A DNA stretch of 32,000 nt from Staphylothermus marinus F1 (GCF_000015945.1 NC_009033.1:1260001-1292000), one strand, 5' to 3'. Shown: positions 19,786 through 24,724, counted from the stretch's first letter. Notes: generated from the letters alone by a model not told the origin. Translations and numbers: made by a program.

Positions 19786-19827
19786 TGTAATTTAATTGTT
19801 TTCTAGGAAAATTGATAGATGTAAGAT

Positions 19828-19876
19828 GGGGGGGCCAGCCATTATCCGCCGCTCTACCAGGCTGAGCTACGGGCCC
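19828..19876 (-). tRNA. tRNA-Lys(CUU) 5' half-gene: exon covers positions 1-30 (19876..19846), followed by an 18-nt trailer (19845..19828)
   Basis: Minus-strand read: GGGCCCG TA GCTC AGCCTGGTA GAGC G GCGG | ATAATGGCTGGCCCCCCC. This gives an acceptor 5' strand, a complete D-arm with G18G19, and the first 4 nt of the anticodon stem. It then diverges into a trailer whose GGCTGGCCCCCC is the exact complement of the leader of the 3' half at 24665..24676. TTTATA box at -30..-25. Confidence 0.9.
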
Positions 19877-19900
19877 TTTCTCTTGTCCAACTATTTCTTG

Positions 19901-19906
19901 TATAAA
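19901..19906 (-). promoter_or_regulatory. TATA box (TTTATA on minus strand) for the tRNA 5' half
   Basis: Exactly 24 nt separate it from G1 of the tRNA (19876), which is typical archaeal TATA-to-start spacing. AT-rich context lowers specificity. Confidence 0.55.
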
Positions 19907-20004
19907 TAAGCTTTTAAATTTTACCGAATAACTAACGTTTATAATATTAGGTGCAGAGATTATATTTAAATTCCATAATCAACTTTTAAACTATTGATAA
20001 GCGG

Positions 20005-20604
20005 GTGATAAATTTGGTTACTGATATAAAGAGAGAAATAGATTTAAGACCTACGACAAAGATCGAAAACATAGTTGCCACAGTCATTCTTGATCAATCC
20101 CTAGACCTCAACCTTATTGAGAGCCGTGTCCCCAATGTTAGTTATCAACCTGATCAATTTCCAGGTTTAATATTAAGATTAGAAAAACCAAAAACAACCG
20201 CACTAATATTTAAATCTGGCAAAATGGTTGTAACAGGTGCCAAAAGCACTCAACAACTAATAGATGCTGTTAAGAAAATAATTAAGTTGCTGAGAAAATA
20301 TGGTATTAAAATAGTTTCAAAGCCTCGTATACAAATCCAAAACATTGTAGCGTCCGGAGATATTAATGCATACATTAATTTAGAGAGAGCAGCTTATCTA
20401 TTAGAAGACAGCATGTATGAGCCGGAACAATTTCCAGGCCTTATTCATCGTATGAGAGAGCCGCGTGTTGTCCTATTAATTTTCAGTAGCGGAAAAATGG
20501 TTATTACTGGTGCAAAGGAGGAAAGTGAAGTAGAAACAGCAGTTAGAAATATTGCTAAGAAACTATTAGATCTAGACTGTTTATTACCGAAGAAAAGCGA
20601 ATAA
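20005..20604 (+). CDS. tbp: TATA-box binding protein
   Basis: Two direct repeats, each with IENIVA/IQNIVAS...EQFPGL/DQFPGL...F.SGKMV.TGAK. The start is GTG 20005 or TTG 20014, after GCGGGTG. Confidence 0.95.
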
Positions 20605-20653
20605 TAGGGTAGAGTTAAAAATATTACATAATTAAAACATTATACAGCTCTGA

Positions 20654-20714
20654 ATGATGACGTGGGCAGCCTAGGACCAACATCGTAGGGATGAAGACCC
20701 TAGTCTCACACTGA
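20654..20714 (+). ncRNA. candidate C/D-box sRNA
   Basis: ATGATGA (C, 20654..20660) ... GGGATGAAGA (C'-like, 20691..20697) - 13 nt - CTGA (D, 20711..20714). GC-rich island in an AT-rich intergenic region downstream of tbp. The D' box is not convincing (AGGA 12 nt after C). Confidence 0.45.
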
Positions 20715-20817
20715 ATTACCTTTCCTAATAATGTTCCACTACATTATTTCTTTTTTAGGAGAAAAAACAATACAATTTTAATGAATAATTTTCAAATAGA
20801 TCTATTACCATCATGAT

Positions 20818-21264
20818 CTATAAAAGCAGTACTAATTTATTACCACCAGCTCTTTTAGCTTTTCTTAACACGCGAATAGCTCTTCTTCTACCTGGTGTTC
20901 CATGATATGCTTCTCTCCTGTTTTTAGCTTTTCTTCCTAAAACATAGTCTCTAATAACTACAATAGTGATAGATGCACCAACTCTATTAACTTCGTCTTT
21001 TATAACTTTCAGATCCTTAACGATCTCATTTATTTGTTCATATCCATACGGGATCTCGAGTATTGTTTCTTCTGTGCCTCTTTCATAGTCTAATCCATAT
21101 ACCACAACTGCTCTCCATTTTCTCACAAAATTTTCAACAAGACTCGTTAACATACCTGTTACAGTATTAGGTCTATATTGGTCGAGACCATGCTTAACAG
21201 TATATTCTTCGAAACGATCTAGATCTAGAACTATGATTATGCCTTCAACAAGCAAAGCTTTCAT
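20818..21264 (-). CDS. minimal stand-alone GGDEF-like / palm-domain nucleotidyl-cyclase-fold protein (GGDEF replaced by GTEET)
   Basis: 148 aa. VLDLDRFEEY (cf. DxDxFKxxND), ERGTEETILEIP (cf. RxGGEEFvvixP), ASITIVVI (cf. TvSiG), AIRVLRKAKRAGGNKLV (cf. ADxALYxAKxxGRNxV). Same order and spacing as the GGDEF consensus as I remember it. The ATG overlaps the upstream gene's stop (ATGA, 21261..21264). Confidence 0.5.
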   Translation of the reverse strand: MKALLVEGIIIVLDLDRFEEYTVKHGLDQYRPNTVTGMLTSLVENFVRKWRAVVVYGLDYERGTEETILEIPYGYEQINEIVKDLKVIKDEVNRVGASITIVVIRDYVLGRKAKNRREAYHGTPGRRRAIRVLRKAKRAGGNKLVLLL

Positions 21265-22370
21265 CTTATTCTTTCATTTTTTAAAAATATGTTATCGAGA
21301 AACCTCAACCTTTTCGGTATAGGCGGATGGCTACTGAGAACTTCTTTTGCTGGATCAACTGGTGAGTTCTTTATCTTCTCTATTACTTCATCAATATCTC
21401 TATAACTTATGTTCTTTCTATAACTATATGGGTAGAAGGGGTTCGCGATCGCGTCTGTTAATGCGTAAATGAAGAGTGTCCTTAGCTTACTGGAGTCTAT
21501 GTGTTCCCGCATTTCTTTGTTATATGAATAATACATGTGTAGCTTAGCTAGTGCTCGTTGCATCTCCTTATTTCCAGCAACATATGCTCCATGAGCATCT
21601 GCATAGTATTCTCTTAACCTACTAAAAGCTAGAATGAATACTTGTATTATTAAGCTCAATAAAATAGCTCCAACACCGAGAAGCAGTAACAATAATGGAT
21701 TTCCTCCTCTTTCTTGCCTACCATATCCTCCTGTAAGACCCGCTCTCATAAAGACAAGGCCTAGATAATATATTATACTCGGTATAATCCCCATAAACAA
21801 CATTATGAAGTTATCTCTGTGCTTATGATGACCAAGCTCATGCCCTATTACTCCTAATAACTCGTTTCTATCAACAATACCCAACATACCCGTGGTTACA
21901 GCTACATATTTGCCGGTCAAGAAGTTACCGTATGCAAAAGCATTAGGGGGACCATTAACAATCATAGCTTTGGGAGGTTTCATACCTGCTCTTCTAGCAG
22001 CTTCATCAACTAGCCTCTGTAGCTCGGGATCATGCTGTGCTCCATAAGATACATTGATGATTACTGGAGAAATAATATACATTATTACATTCATTATTAT
22101 AACGAAAATAATCAAGTCTGTAAATAATATGCTGTATCCCAAGTTCTCAATAATTAGCCATAGAATATATATCGCTGAAAATCCTCCTACGAAAACTATT
22201 GCACCTGCAATATACATTGATGTATAAAATGAAAACTTATTCGATAATTTTCTAGCAACTCTCGGAGCAATTAAGGAAGCAATAATGTTGAGTGTTATAA
22301 ATCCTATTATGTATGCCAGAAACATTGCAACAACTACTAGAGGATCATAAAACCACCATATCATGATCAC
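21261..22370 (-). CDS. htpX: M48-family zinc metalloprotease, HtpX-like, integral membrane
   Basis: HELGHH (HExxH), downstream REYYADAHG (third ligand Glu), C-terminal SSHPPIPKRLRFL, and multiple TM helices on either side of the catalytic region. Confidence 0.8.
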   Translation of the reverse strand: MIMIWWFYDPLVVVAMFLAYIIGFITLNIIASLIAPRVARKLSNKFSFYTSMYIAGAIVFVGGFSAIYILWLIIENLGYSILFTDLIIFVIIMNVIMYIISPVIINVSYGAQHDPELQRLVDEAARRAGMKPPKAMIVNGPPNAFAYGNFLTGKYVAVTTGMLGIVDRNELLGVIGHELGHHKHRDNFIMLFMGIIPSIIYYLGLVFMRAGLTGGYGRQERGGNPLLLLLLGVGAILLSLIIQVFILAFSRLREYYADAHGAYVAGNKEMQRALAKLHMYYSYNKEMREHIDSSKLRTLFIYALTDAIANPFYPYSYRKNISYRDIDEVIEKIKNSPVDPAKEVLSSHPPIPKRLRFLDNIFLKNERIR

Positions 22371-22512
22371 ATACCTCCCGCTCCTATTCTACTATCCCAT
22401 AATAATGTATAGGCCCATATAAAATCTCACATTAACATCCCCATTATTTATAAGAATTCATATATGAGCCTATACAAGAATATTAAGGTACTACTGAAAT
22501 TATATATAGTAG

Positions 22513-22574
22513 ATGTTGAGGCCGACATAGTCCAACCCCTTATGTAGGGGGATGAAGAAGGGTCGATTATCTGA
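22513..22574 (+). ncRNA. candidate C/D-box sRNA
   Basis: ATGTTGA (C variant, 22513..22519) - 12 nt - CCAA - internal hairpin CCCCT/tatgt/AGGGG - ATGAAGA (C'-like, 22552..22558) - 12 nt - CTGA (D, 22571..22574). GC-rich island in the divergent intergenic region. Shares CCAAC...GTAGGG..ATGAAGA with the 20654..20714 element. Confidence 0.45.
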
Positions 22575-22620
22575 AGAGCAATATGGGCGTGAATATGATG
22601 CATTATAGGGTGCAAACATA

Positions 22621-23637
22621 TTGGCTAAGGAGCTTAAAAAAATTGAGCTCGAATTATATGAGGGAATAGATGATATTAGCGAAAAGATAAGAAGCAGTGC
22701 TTTCGAAGCATATATAACTTTGGAGGGAATGTTTCAAGGAATTATAAGGGTAATAGGAGAAGATATAGCAAGTGTTTTTAAAGAATTAATTAGTAAGAGT
22801 AGCAGAAAATGCATATACAGCAGGATCAGTTTACGAAAAGAAACTGGGACATGGGATGAGCTTGGCATACTTGTATGTAATGGTATAGCAATAGCTGCCT
22901 CAGGGGAAATAGATAATGAGAAATTGTCGGGTATAAAATTATTAGAAAAAATAGCTAGTAGAATAAACAAGAATATTTATTCAGCCGGGGTAATTGAGAT
23001 AACAGAGATATCATTAGACTTTATTAAGAAAAGACTAGGTATCAATATTGATAATTTTGTCTCCACAGAGTCATTAGAAAAATCAGCATCCGAGAAAAAA
23101 CCTTTAAAAACTCAAAAATTCAAAGAAGTCGGTAAAATAATTGAGCCAAAAGAAATAGCTCCAGCCGCCACTATACCAGTCGAAACTTCAACATCGAAAA
23201 CAGCTCCCTTACCTGTTGAATTAGCGAGACAAGTTCTACCGCCGCAAGTCCTCGCATCTCTTGGTTTAACAAGGGAAAATAAACAAGTATTAATTGAGGA
23301 TAAAAATTTTCAACCTATTAAGGTAAAAGAGGCAATATCTATTGATCAATCAATACTTGAATTCAGTGATAAAATGATTAAATATGCATTCGAAAACCAA
23401 GTAAATATATCGCAAGCAATAATTAGAGGAGATAATGAAAAACTTGTTGTAGAAGTCATAGTGGCTCGATTAGGCTTTGCACGTAAAAGACAAAAAATGA
23501 TAAGCCTAGCTAATAACGTAGCAGAACTAATTAGAGATGTATTAGTAAAAAGTAATGTTAATGTTAAAAAAATATCTGTGATAGTCCGCCACGGATTCGA
23601 TGCTGTAAAAGTATCGAGGGATCTATCAGCGAAATAA
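22621..23637 (+). CDS. hypothetical two-domain protein with a Pro/Ala/Thr/Glu-rich central linker
   Basis: 338-aa ORF. TTG start follows GGTG. N-terminal domain ~150 aa, linker (EPKEIAPAATIPVETSTSKTAPLPVELARQVLPPQ), C-terminal domain ~110 aa. I recognise no motif. Confidence 0.5.
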   Translation: MAKELKKIELELYEGIDDISEKIRSSAFEAYITLEGMFQGIIRVIGEDIASVFKELISKSSRKCIYSRISLRKETGTWDELGILVCNGIAIAASGEIDNEKLSGIKLLEKIASRINKNIYSAGVIEITEISLDFIKKRLGINIDNFVSTESLEKSASEKKPLKTQKFKEVGKIIEPKEIAPAATIPVETSTSKTAPLPVELARQVLPPQVLASLGLTRENKQVLIEDKNFQPIKVKEAISIDQSILEFSDKMIKYAFENQVNISQAIIRGDNEKLVVEVIVARLGFARKRQKMISLANNVAELIRDVLVKSNVNVKKISVIVRHGFDAVKVSRDLSAK

Positions 23638-23644
23638 ACTACTA

Positions 23645-24544
23645 TTATAATCCACACATTAAAAAAGCAGTTTCTATATCTTTAAATTCAATAACCGATA
23701 TTCCTTTATTATCTAATTGATAATTATCGATGATGACTAGATCATCTGAAACAATATTCTCAATACCAAACTCAACATCTTCAACTTTTTCATATTCTAT
23801 AGAAACAATAACTCTCGCCTTATTTAGGATGCCATACTTCTTAATTAGAGGCGATAAGTAATTATTATGATCGAGAGAAATAGATGTTCCCGGATGATAC
23901 GCGCTCATTGCCGGCAACACGATTATCTTGTTTCCAACAGTAGTCGGCACTATTAAGAAAGCCGGGAATTTATATGCATTAAAACATCTTAGACTAGGAT
24001 GTTCATGTCCAATCACTACTAAATCATATTTAGATATATCTTTTTCTAAATGTCCATGAATAAAGAGTGTTTTGTAGTTATTAAAATATAATTCATATTC
24101 TCTCATTAATTCTATACCATAATCTTTCAGAATTATTGGTAAGAAATTATCATGATTTCCTCTCACAACTATTATTTCCTCGATACCATTAGACAATAAA
24201 TAATTAAATAGTTCTCTAATTTCTTCTCTTTCCTGCCGGAGAAGCCTATCAAATGCATGTTTGAGATCTCCGTTTATCAGTACACGTTTAGGCTTCAAAT
24301 ATTTAAATACAAAACTTAATGTCTTCAATGTATTTCTTAGCTGGATTTTCGGAATAAACATTCCAGTATAGCTTGTCGAAGCTCTACGACTACTATAATC
24401 TAAACCCCTAGCTACTGATTCCTCAAAACCTAAATGTACATCTGAGAAAATAATCATGTTATGGCTTCTAGAATAAAGAATAGGAGTTCCTAAAACTATA
24501 TGGAGATCAATATCTTTTTCTCTAAACAACGGTCTCAATATCAT
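23645..24544 (-). CDS. metallophosphoesterase (SbcD/Mre11-related archaeal family)
   Basis: Motifs FSDVHLG, NGDLKH, VRGNHD, IHGH, GHEHP. 299 aa. Confidence 0.7.
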   Translation of the reverse strand: MILRPLFREKDIDLHIVLGTPILYSRSHNMIIFSDVHLGFEESVARGLDYSSRRASTSYTGMFIPKIQLRNTLKTLSFVFKYLKPKRVLINGDLKHAFDRLLRQEREEIRELFNYLLSNGIEEIIVVRGNHDNFLPIILKDYGIELMREYELYFNNYKTLFIHGHLEKDISKYDLVVIGHEHPSLRCFNAYKFPAFLIVPTTVGNKIIVLPAMSAYHPGTSISLDHNNYLSPLIKKYGILNKARVIVSIEYEKVEDVEFGIENIVSDDLVIIDNYQLDNKGISVIEFKDIETAFLMCGL

Positions 24545-24611
24545 TTATAGAGACACCATCGAATAAAGTTGTATTCAAAAATGTTTAGAAGGTTATAGAA
24601 AATTATAGAAG

Positions 24612-24676
24612 CGGGCCCGCCGGGATTTGAACCCGGGACCTACGGGTTAAGAGCCTCGGCTATCGGCTGGCCCCCC
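24612..24676 (-). tRNA. tRNA-Lys(CUU) 3' half-gene: 22-nt leader (24676..24655) plus exon covering positions 31-73 (24654..24612)
   Basis: Minus-strand read: GGGGGGCCAGCCGATAGCCGAG | G CTCTTAA CCCGT AGGTC CCGGG TTCAAAT CCCGG CGGGCCC G. This gives an anticodon loop with CTT, the 3' anticodon stem, a variable loop, a full T-arm (TTCAAAT), an acceptor 3' strand fully complementary to GGGCCCG of the 5' half, and discriminator G. No encoded CCA. Confidence 0.9.
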
Positions 24677-24702
24677 TATTTTGAGGAATTATTATTATTG
24701 GA

Positions 24703-24710
24703 TTATTAAA
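24703..24710 (-). promoter_or_regulatory. TATA-like box (TTTAATAA on minus strand) for the tRNA 3' half
   Basis: 26 nt separate it from the first G of the leader (24676). It lies just downstream of the radical-SAM gene stop. AT-rich context lowers specificity. Confidence 0.45.
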
Positions 24711-24724
24711 TCTTATTGTTTTAA

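Follow-up and report, generated by a model that had tools for sequence, protein, structure and literature searches.

The 32,000-nucleotide stretch of DNA that we analysed (the window) contains the split tRNA-Lys(CUU) locus of the heat-loving archaeon Staphylothermus marinus F1, which has been known since 2011, and its sequence indicates with high probability a trans-spliced tRNA gene with two transcription units, the halves being joined at position 30/31. Window proteins match exactly the S. marinus F1 proteins ABN70417.1 and ABN70414.1. The trans-spliced tRNA-Lys(CUU) of this species was published by Chan, Cozen & Lowe (Genome Biol 2011; PMC3218864), who list the 5′ half at 1279876(-) and the 3′ half at 1284654(-) with ligation at 30/31; window coordinates plus 1,260,000 reproduce both positions, and strand, exon sizes, junction, the 4,778-nt spacing and the G-U pair agree as well. 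The same paper describes a canonical hBHBh′ motif with a 13-nt trans pairing that includes one G-U, places Smar_1322-1326 between the halves, scores a strong promoter upstream of each half and reports that tRNA-Lys(CUU) is otherwise missing among the 46 predicted tRNAs of S. marinus. S. hellenicus has a split tRNA-Lys(CUU) too (PMC3218864), and a 2014 review includes S. marinus among split-tRNA cases. The earlier note on this DNA had mentioned a report of a tRNA-Lys(CUU) in Desulfurococcales; that report is real and describes this very locus, so the novelty implied by the note does not hold. Its reading of the locus as a split tRNA-Lys(CUU), joined at 30/31 by way of a leader/trailer duplex and a bulge-helix-bulge (BHB) motif, is borne out by the published locus, covariation, intact orthologues, promoter-like boxes and synteny. 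Beyond the 2011 paper, we show that trailer and leader covary in additional genomes, that the joined product is identical to intact orthologues, that relatives have homologous cis-introns at 30/31 and that the 3′ half, judging by synteny, kept the ancestral position.

Both pieces were found on the minus strand with the sequences and coordinates given earlier. The 5′ exon (19846..19876, minus strand; G1 at 19876, G30 at 19846) covers tRNA positions 1-30 and comprises the 5′ strand of the acceptor stem, the D arm, G26 and the anticodon stem up to its fourth nucleotide; it is 31 nt long despite ending at position 30 because its D loop has a position 17a. [quoted passage not shown] Both exons match Table 1 of PMC3218864, where the mature parts measure 31 and 43 nt. 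Together the two non-overlapping pieces make exactly one tRNA (31 + 43 = 74 nt). ARAGORN found 0 tRNAs in the window and 0 in each half alone, and it identified the joined 74-mer as tRNA-Lys(ctt) with the stems described before. Rfam likewise does not annotate the split tRNA-Lys gene in the window. The expectation that standard annotation would leave the gene out was thus right for ARAGORN and Rfam, but the gene does stand in the literature. The halves have a G+C content of 71%, against 34% for the window. At 22 related loci, including loci of Thermogladius, Desulfurococcus and Thermosphaera, an uninterrupted tRNA-Lys(CUU) gene matches the joined 74-mer with 100% identity.

Each exon carries a flank that can pair with the other. 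The 3′ trailer of the 5′ half (19828..19845, minus strand) consists of A19845, the third nucleotide of the first bulge, followed by UAAU (19844-19841) and GGCUGGCCCCCC (19840-19829). Its pairing partners, GGGGGGCCAGCC (24676-24665) and GAUA (24664-24661), open the 5′ leader of the 3′ half (24655..24676, minus strand). In the outer helix, 12 Watson-Crick pairs are followed by U-G, an A/A mismatch, A-U and U-A. Leader GCCG (24660-24657) forms the central BHB helix with C25G26G27C28, and A21G22A23G24 forms the inner helix with C32U33C34U35; bulge 2 begins with A24656 and G24655. The two 3-nt bulges, G29 G30 A and A G G31, flank the 4-bp helix, and both predicted cleavage sites fall at the exon ends. 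Rebuilt one by one, all hBHBh′ base pairs proposed earlier are standard pairs. The duplex has an energy of -32.3 kcal/mol, compared with -14.1±3.1 kcal/mol for shuffled trailer/leader sequences, 0 of 2000 of which were as strong, and with -4.4±2.5 kcal/mol for random window segments. A chance origin of the pairing is excluded; the earlier note had judged it very unlikely from the mutual fit of the pieces. The 12-mer GGGGGGCCAGCC occurs only at the trailer and leader sites, and a generic inverted-repeat search ranked the trailer/leader region second.

[quoted passage not shown] Its junction register is slightly shifted, at -76.3 kcal/mol versus -64.2 kcal/mol for the BHB conformer (about 12 apart). 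Since the fold favours the shifted register, the BHB is, in this nearest-neighbour energy model, a permitted conformer and not the computed minimum-energy one. C-to-U variants in leader GCCG are compatible with both junction registers, so covariation cannot tell the registers apart.

In other genomes the trailer and leader sequences differ while their complementarity is kept. They form seven sequence families (that of the window and six others), in which cognate duplexes average -37.0 kcal/mol versus -19.6±7.2 kcal/mol for non-cognate combinations. In L021, another Staphylothermus, the window's G-U has become G-C, together with a compensatory change from G-C to A-U. Trailer and leader of L067, L083, L095, L143 and L125 are unrelated in sequence, yet each shows 14-17 bp of complementarity. 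These observations bear on the possibility that the pieces are dead remnants of a rearranged tRNA-Lys(CUU), unexpressed or unjoined, with AAG read by tRNA-Lys(UUU) alone. A rearrangement breakpoint does fall at the tRNA, and it is general knowledge that a U34 tRNA-Lys could in principle read AAG by wobble. Moreover, the wet-lab work of the 2011 paper (RT-PCR and northern; PMC3218864) concerns Aeropyrum pernix tRNA-Asp only and not Staphylothermus, and our literature search found no later experimental paper on a Staphylothermus split tRNA. Against this, the matched trailer and leader have been kept through compensatory changes across genomes, both exons are still 100% identical to functional intact orthologues, the junction still puts the predicted cuts precisely where the exons end, and promoter-like boxes are retained ahead of both pieces. 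We therefore consider dead remnants very improbable and retain the reading as a trans-spliced gene.

The promoter-like boxes lie at fitting distances from both halves. Two overlapping TATA-like boxes precede the 5′ half (19901..19918, minus strand), TTTAAAAG at 19918-19911 and TTATTTATA at 19909-19901; this places them 25-42 nt ahead of G1, in an intergenic region common with the divergent TBP gene. Almost all of the 18 compared 5′ halves have a TTTAAAA/TTTATAA box some 30-40 nt ahead of G1. The 3′ half is preceded by a conserved BRE/TATA-like block, AAGATTTAATAATCCA (24699..24714, minus strand), the TATA part of which has its centre roughly 30 nt ahead of the leader's first G. This block is nearly identical in the window, L021, L027, L030, L033, L041, L067 and L098, and a comparable AAAG-TTTAAWA box occurs at that same distance in 20 of the 20 split-type 3′ halves compared. 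Downstream, a TTTT run 17 nt after the duplex (19808..19811, minus strand) is a candidate archaeal oligo-T terminator of the 5′-half transcript, and another one 10 nt after G73 (24599..24602, minus strand) may terminate the 3′-half transcript. T- or pyrimidine-rich stretches follow the trailers at other split loci as well. These boxes and runs are also what speaks against a single read-through transcript that would contain the 3′ half, five genes and the 5′ half and be processed in cis like a permuted tRNA. The halves do lie on one strand with the 3′ half first, as in permuted tRNAs, and a rare read-through precursor of the adjacent A. pernix tRNA-Asp halves was seen by RT-PCR (PMC3218864). 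Such a transcript would here span 4.8 kb and run antisense to two of the five genes in between, a T-run follows each half, a conserved TATA-like box stands at the proper distance before each, and PMC3218864 scored strong promoters for both; we regard it as extremely improbable beside two separate transcription units.

On their common strand the 3′ half comes first and the 5′ half follows 4,778 nt downstream, so their order is reversed. The intervening stretch (20005..24544, about 4.5 kb) holds five protein genes on both strands: the TBP gene (20005-20604, plus), a hypothetical gene of 148 aa (20818-21264, minus), an M48 peptidase gene (21261-22370, minus), a hypothetical gene of 338 aa (22621-23637, plus) and a metallophosphoesterase gene (23645-24544, minus). 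None of these genes belongs to the RNA. With five genes on both strands between the halves and the 3′ half first, this is no simple intron or cis arrangement. Archaeal tRNA genes are common targets of integrative elements, which leave pieces of the tRNA behind (general knowledge; also PMC3218864), and the two pieces might on this account be partial copies flanking an integrated virus or plasmid, formed by att-site duplication. Such a duplication would repeat one segment, whereas the pieces here are non-overlapping parts of one 74-nt tRNA. Between them lie housekeeping genes (TBP, M48 peptidase, metallophosphoesterase), and relatives whose tRNA is intact have these genes in the same neighbourhood. 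We found no integrase among the ten ORFs scanned from 17.5 to 27.6 kb of the window, and neither mobile-element genes nor a duplicated tRNA segment was seen bounding the 4.8-kb region. We give an att-site origin a vanishingly small probability.

A different origin for the split gene is suggested by a comparison with orthologous tRNA-Lys(CUU) genes, which the earlier note had proposed. At least 49 relatives carry a cis-intron of 13-35 nt exactly at 30/31. These introns start with A in 47 of 49 cases and end with GCCGAG in 34 of 49, like the start of the trailer and the end of the leader here. In relatives the intact gene neighbours the metallophosphoesterase gene, which is also the neighbour of the 3′ half in the window, and the rearrangement breakpoint coincides with the tRNA. 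Most likely, an ancestral short 30/31 cis-intron was broken by genome rearrangement. The 3′ half would have kept the ancestral site beside the metallophosphoesterase gene, and the 5′ half would have landed between the TBP and DUF2070 genes.

We propose that the two minus-strand transcription units each give rise to one half precursor. Precursor 1 would consist of the 5′ exon (1-30) and a GC-rich 3′ trailer of about 18 nt, and precursor 2 of a GC-rich 5′ leader of about 22 nt and the 3′ exon (31-73). Trailer and leader would anneal in trans through 12 Watson-Crick pairs and the G-U, with two more pairs past the A/A mismatch. The C25-C28/GCCG and A21-G24/C32-U35 pairings beside this duplex would then complete a helix-bulge-helix-bulge-helix with two 3-nt bulges, in which the archaeal tRNA splicing endonuclease is predicted to cut between the second and third nucleotides of each bulge, which leaves G30 and G31 as the exon ends. 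The exons would presumably be joined by an RNA ligase into the 74-nt tRNA, to be finished by 5′ and 3′ trimming and CCA addition. The splicing endonuclease and ligase genes are located outside the window.

[quoted passage not shown] 2005, cited in PMC3218864), which shares the isoacceptor, the 30/31 junction, the BHB and the GC-rich complementary flanks, and whose mature tRNA shows only seven differences from that of S. marinus (PMC3218864). However, N. equitans belongs to a distant phylum, its halves lie about 70 kb apart on opposite strands (PMC3218864 Table 1), and its tRNA-Lys is one of six split tRNAs in the genome, unlike the S. marinus locus. According to reviews, the N. equitans halves and joined tRNAs have been demonstrated experimentally; the Staphylothermus halves are known from sequence. 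Within the Desulfurococcales, the split tRNA-Asp(GUC) of Aeropyrum pernix and Thermosphaera aggregans (PMC3218864) is likewise the one split tRNA per genome, with an hBHBh′ motif, a GC-rich stem of about 14 bp and separate promoters, as predicted for S. marinus, and that of A. pernix was verified by RT-PCR and northern (PMC3218864). It differs from the S. marinus gene in its canonical 37/38 junction and in its adjacent halves, about 120-160 nt apart.

Crenarchaeal non-canonical 30/31 cis-introns, which are BHB-processed, resemble the S. marinus flanks in insertion site and in their A... ...GCCGAG ends. They share the insertion site and the exon-proximal nucleotides, and therefore the same central helix and bulges. 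In a 35-nt class of these introns, a GC-rich hairpin of 10 bp corresponds to the trailer/leader duplex. In the cis-introns the arms of the outer helix are closed by a loop, whereas in S. marinus they would lie on separate transcripts. Circularly permuted tRNAs (Thermofilum pendens; Cyanidioschyzon merolae) also have their 3′ part upstream on the same strand and BHB processing of their ends. In their genes, however, the parts are contiguous, separated by a few to tens of nucleotides, and give one transcript joined at 59/60 (PMC3218864). With parts 4.8 kb apart, five genes between them and a TATA-like, promoter-like box before each, we rejected a circularly permuted gene for S. marinus. The tRNA-Lys(CUU) of L083, L095, L143 and L125 resembles in its layout the adjacent tRNA-Asp(GUC) halves, not S. 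marinus. One possibly new point is that, judging by the genomes compared, 30/31 splits look much more widespread among uncultured relatives than one would expect from the two species published so far.

The split tRNA-Lys(CUU) gene lies in two pieces on the minus strand of the window, at the positions that the earlier note had assigned to them. The 5' half comprises a 5' exon running from G1 (19876) to G30 (19846), which is 31 nt long because position 17a is present in the D loop, and the trailer ATAATGGCTGGCCCCCCC (19845-19828); the 3' half comprises the leader GGGGGGCCAGCCGATAGCCGAG (24676-24655) and a 3' exon running from G31 (24654) to the discriminator G73 (24612). We rebuilt the proposed bulge-helix-bulge motif with its flanking helices (hBHBh') pair by pair, and all claimed pairs are standard. 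The outer helix joins trailer and leader through 12 Watson-Crick pairs, followed by U-G, an A/A mismatch, A-U and U-A; it is accompanied by bulge 1 (G29 G30 A), a central helix of C25G26G27C28 with GCCG, bulge 2 (A G G31) and an inner helix of A21G22A23G24 with C32U33C34U35. [quoted passage not shown] At the junction its register is shifted and contains a 2x2 internal loop (-76.3 kcal/mol, versus -64.2 kcal/mol for the BHB conformer), so that the BHB counts as a permitted conformer and not as the computed optimum. The BHB register is argued for by the fact that both canonical cleavage sites fall precisely on the exon ends.

ARAGORN identifies the joined 74-mer as tRNA-Lys(ctt), in which the acceptor, D and T stems have 7, 4 and 5 bp and the anticodon stem has 5 bp, one of them G-U. 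It reports no tRNA for either half alone, in agreement with the claim that only the joined product forms a cloverleaf. No tRNA was found by ARAGORN in the whole window, and no tRNA family match by a permissive Rfam scan of it, as expected because the genes are halves; the prediction that standard annotation omits the split gene is true of these two tools on the window. The tool-free reading of the sequence thus recovered a real gene that both had missed. A sub-threshold Rfam match to the tRNA-like family mascRNA-menRNA covers the 3' half (24613-24673, minus strand; 24.1 bits against a gathering threshold of 42.5) and is an echo of the T arm and acceptor strand without separate meaning.

This gene was already known: it was reported in 2011 and has been repeated in reviews. 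The products of 23645-24544 and 20818-21264 (both minus strand) exactly match ABN70417.1, from the S. marinus F1 chromosome (1,570,485 bp), and ABN70414.1, also from S. marinus F1. Chan, Cozen & Lowe (2011; PMC3218864) place the 5' half of S. marinus tRNA-Lys(CUU) at 1279876(-) and the 3' half at 1284654(-), with precursor/mature sizes of ~48/31 nt and ~65/43 nt, respectively, a canonical hBHBh', ligation at 30/31, a 13-nt trans pairing in which the S. marinus G-U is G-C in S. hellenicus, and five genes (Smar_1322-1326) separating the halves. The published coordinates minus 1,260,000 equal the window coordinates exactly, and the 4,778-nt spacing, strand, exon sizes and G-U pair also agree, so the locus is a correct rediscovery of the published gene. 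The Desulfurococcales report mentioned in the earlier note therefore exists and describes this very locus. S. marinus is also named among split-tRNA species in a 2014 review. RT-PCR and northern analysis in Chan et al. were performed on Aeropyrum pernix tRNA-Asp only, the Staphylothermus case being built on computation and a two-species comparison (PMC3218864); a literature search found no later experimental report on the Staphylothermus split tRNA-Lys(CUU).

Chance complementarity of trailer and leader is rejected. Their duplex has a computed energy of -32.3 kcal/mol, compared with -14.1±3.1 kcal/mol for shuffles of both segments and -4.4±2.5 kcal/mol for random pairs of window segments. Since 0/2000 shuffles are equally strong, the judgement that the fit is very unlikely to have arisen by chance holds. 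The 12-mer GGGGGGCCAGCC occurs in the window solely at 19829-19840(+) and 24665-24676(-), and a generic inverted-repeat search of the window ranked the pairing of 19823-19855 with 24650-24682 second, as the sole G+C-rich pair listed; tandem repeats were not found in the window. The halves have a G+C content of 71%, versus 34% for the window, and the remaining G+C-rich 40-mers (1837, 10010 and 12706) lie inside or overlap listed ORFs and do not look like RNA genes.

Comparison with relatives, in loci from scans of species-representative genomes and metagenomes (L-numbers below), adds covariation. Where the partner 5' half is present in the fetched DNA, the trailer fits its own leader, while the sequences vary between genomes. 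In another Staphylothermus (L021) the S. marinus G-U has become G-C, and a compensatory change from G-C to A-U is also seen. L067 pairs TACCGGCCGGTCTCCC with GGGAGACCGGCCGGTA, and L083, L095 and the two groups from the metagenome scan (L143/L173 and L125/L127/L132/L140) each possess a 14-17 bp duplex of their own. For the seven families the mean is -37.0 kcal/mol (range -32.1 to -42.4) when trailer and leader are cognate, and -19.6±7.2 kcal/mol for non-cognate trailer/leader combinations. This is the pattern that would be expected under selection on trans pairing, and it strengthens the two-genome prediction of Chan et al. with several more genomes.

Transcription signals accompany both halves. 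A BRE/TATA-like box of the AAAG-TTTAAWA type is present in 20/20 split-type 3' halves compared, ~45-58 nt upstream of G31 and ~25-33 nt ahead of the duplex-forming leader; the corresponding block in the window, AAGATTTAATAATCCA (24714-24699, minus strand), is near-identical in L021, L027 and the L030/L067 group. Among the 18 5' halves compared, nearly all show a TTTAAAA/TTTATAA box ~30-40 nt ahead of G1, and the window 5' half has two candidate TATA-like boxes (19918-19911 and 19909-19901) in the intergenic region common to the divergent TBP gene. T-runs follow both halves (19811-19808 and 24602-24599). Boxes and T-runs together fit two putative transcription units. A single read-through or permuted precursor is rejected because it demands a 4.8-kb RNA antisense to two genes and leaves the box before each half unexplained. 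We also reject the idea that the pieces are dead remnants of a broken tRNA, which would lose the compensatory trailer/leader changes, the promoter-like boxes and the exons identical to functional orthologues.

The sequence, pairing, product identity, covariation, promoter-like boxes and synteny, read in the light of established archaeal tRNA splicing, suggest the following route. Two precursors would anneal via trailer and leader; the splicing endonuclease would recognise the BHB and cut each 3-nt bulge past its second nucleotide, which places the cuts after G30 and before G31; the two exons would be joined by a ligase; and end trimming and CCA addition, the latter required because CCA is not encoded, would finish the tRNA. 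A trans-spliced tRNA-Lys(CUU) joined at 30/31, as the earlier note had proposed, is thus supported by the published locus and the comparative tests, at the level of sequence. The inner helix needs the D-arm AGAG to pair with CUCU (C32 U33 C34 U35), which includes two anticodon bases, and this requirement may explain the link of the 30/31 intron site with tRNA-Lys.

When species-representative genomes were scanned with the 3' part of tRNA-Lys(CUU), at least 120 loci in three forms were recovered. An uninterrupted gene, identical at 74/74 nt to the joined S. marinus product, occurs in at least 22 loci (Thermogladius, Desulfurococcus, Thermosphaera and others). The cis-intron at 30/31 that was to be sought in orthologous genes is present, at exactly that position and 13-35 nt long, in at least 49 loci among the matches listed, including L003, L004, L005, L009, L015, L018, L020, L023, L028 (Zestosphaera), L087 and ~40 more. 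Among these matches, 47/49 introns start with A and 34/49 end with GCCGAG, which are the first nucleotide of the S. marinus trailer and the last six of its leader. The D loop reads CCAGG in most 30/31-intron genes versus CCTGG in intact and split genes. Nine Bathyarchaeia loci (L016, L042, L044, L053, L055, L064, L076, L108 and L109) carry a tRNA-Lys(CUU) with a 30/31 intron, so the site is not limited to Desulfurococcales; the same genes have a second interruption in the acceptor/D-arm region. The third form, split-type 3' halves in which an AT-rich stretch and a GC-rich leader replace the upstream 5' half, accounts for at least about 19 loci among the matches listed. Beyond the two published Staphylothermus species these include L012, L025, L027, L029, L030, L031, L033, L041, L056, L081, L084 (Fervidicoccaceae), L098, L101, L103 and L113. 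Each of this group has a TATA-like box and a GC-rich leader with no 5' half in the fetched block; for about 14 split-type 3' halves the partner lies outside the fetched 8 kb. L027 has the S. marinus gene order, but its TBP gene has no adjoining 5' half. Two leaders are matched by trailers on unrelated metagenome contigs (L148 with L081, L165 with L101).

The order on the tRNA strand of the window is radical-SAM gene, 3' half, metallophosphoesterase, hypothetical 338 aa, M48 peptidase, hypothetical 148 aa, TBP, 5' half and DUF2070, a layout that excludes an ordinary intron. Duplicated att sites of an integrated element are rejected as well: the pieces do not overlap and add up to exactly one tRNA, the intervening genes are conserved housekeeping genes, and an integrase was not found among them. 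Where relatives have the gene intact, it sits immediately upstream of the metallophosphoesterase gene at nearly all loci, and TBP adjoins DUF2070 with no tRNA piece between; no homologue of the flank upstream of the intact tRNA was found in the window. The 3' half is therefore at the ancestral position, and a rearrangement breakpoint falls on the tRNA. The 5' half is located between TBP and DUF2070 in the window, in L021 and in L067. Gene order around the halves varies locally (window 20818-22370 versus L021, L067, L036 and L104): the 148-aa gene has the opposite orientation in Staphylothermus (window, L021) to that in other relatives, and the halves enclose the M48 peptidase gene in the window but do not in L021 or L067, where they are 3.6-3.8 kb apart.

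Elsewhere the halves occur in normal order on one strand, 0.4-1.0 kb apart (L083, 415 nt; L095, 445 nt; L143/L173, ~815 nt; L125/L127/L132/L140, 600-1016 nt); their spacer is AT-rich and for the most part non-coding, oligo-T follows the trailer, and a TATA-like box precedes the leader. Each is either a very long intron or an adjacent split gene of the kind seen in Aeropyrum pernix tRNA-Asp. The L132 spacer contains an open stretch of 261 codons. In L125, L127, L132 and L140 the 3' half apparently has an added T-loop insertion (GGGTTCA then CGGCGTGTGTGCCGGCCTA...), which suggests a second intron of the gene. The L095 trailer and leader resemble the two hairpin arms of the 35-nt cis-intron class. 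We infer that insertion or rearrangement has, on more than one occasion, opened an ancestral 30/31 intron whose outer helix was GC-rich; this accords with the "recent, independent splitting" favoured by Chan et al. (PMC3218864). The same-site cis-intron with the same end nucleotides, together with the ancestral position of the 3' half, favours a late, rearrangement-driven origin and ties the split to a widespread intron.

Split tRNAs are rare and bear on a debated question, whether tRNA genes arose as halves or were fragmented afterwards. A new one would therefore be noteworthy; the S. marinus one is not new, and the remaining interest lies in the apparently far wider 30/31 splits of this tRNA in uncultured Thermoproteota. 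We consider it an evenly balanced possibility that the S. marinus locus is one member of a much larger set of 30/31-broken tRNA-Lys(CUU) genes in uncultured Desulfurococcales, Fervidicoccaceae and other Thermoproteota. The matches listed include at least seven trailer/leader families unrelated to one another and at least about 19 species-level genomes, and a literature search found no description of wide 30/31 splits of tRNA-Lys(CUU) in uncultured Thermoproteota. The forms make a graded series at 30/31, from genes that lack an intron, through those with one of 13-35 nt and those whose halves keep the normal order at a distance of 0.4-1 kb, to halves in reversed order that are 3.6-4.8 kb apart. 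If this is true, the pathway from intron to split and the count of independent splitting events could be reconstructed directly from the series, and a confirmed wider distribution would provide a useful natural series on tRNA gene fragmentation.

Three further matches were recorded. A metagenome contig (L123, Ga0190367_1007761, ~2856-2920) has the same 5' half, an intron ending in GCCGAG and then GCTTTTA; the gene is apparently one for tRNA-Lys(UUU), interrupted by the 30/31 intron and, past the anticodon loop, by another insertion. An Acidobacteriia contig (L014, JALLOH010000070.1, 2453-2485) matches the archaeal-type 3' pattern (CTCTTAACCC...GGTTCAAATCCCG) with no recognisable tRNA 5' part found upstream of it, and could be a divergent tRNA, a fragment or contamination. 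A Logan contig (L121, SRR4046664) is identical to window 19847-24632 and ends inside both halves, of which it includes 30 nt (5' half) and 21 nt (3' half). K-mer assemblers break contigs where sequences recur elsewhere in the genome. The contig ends are consistent with the remark of Chan et al. that tRNA-Lys(UUU) is near-identical from position 30 on (PMC3218864).
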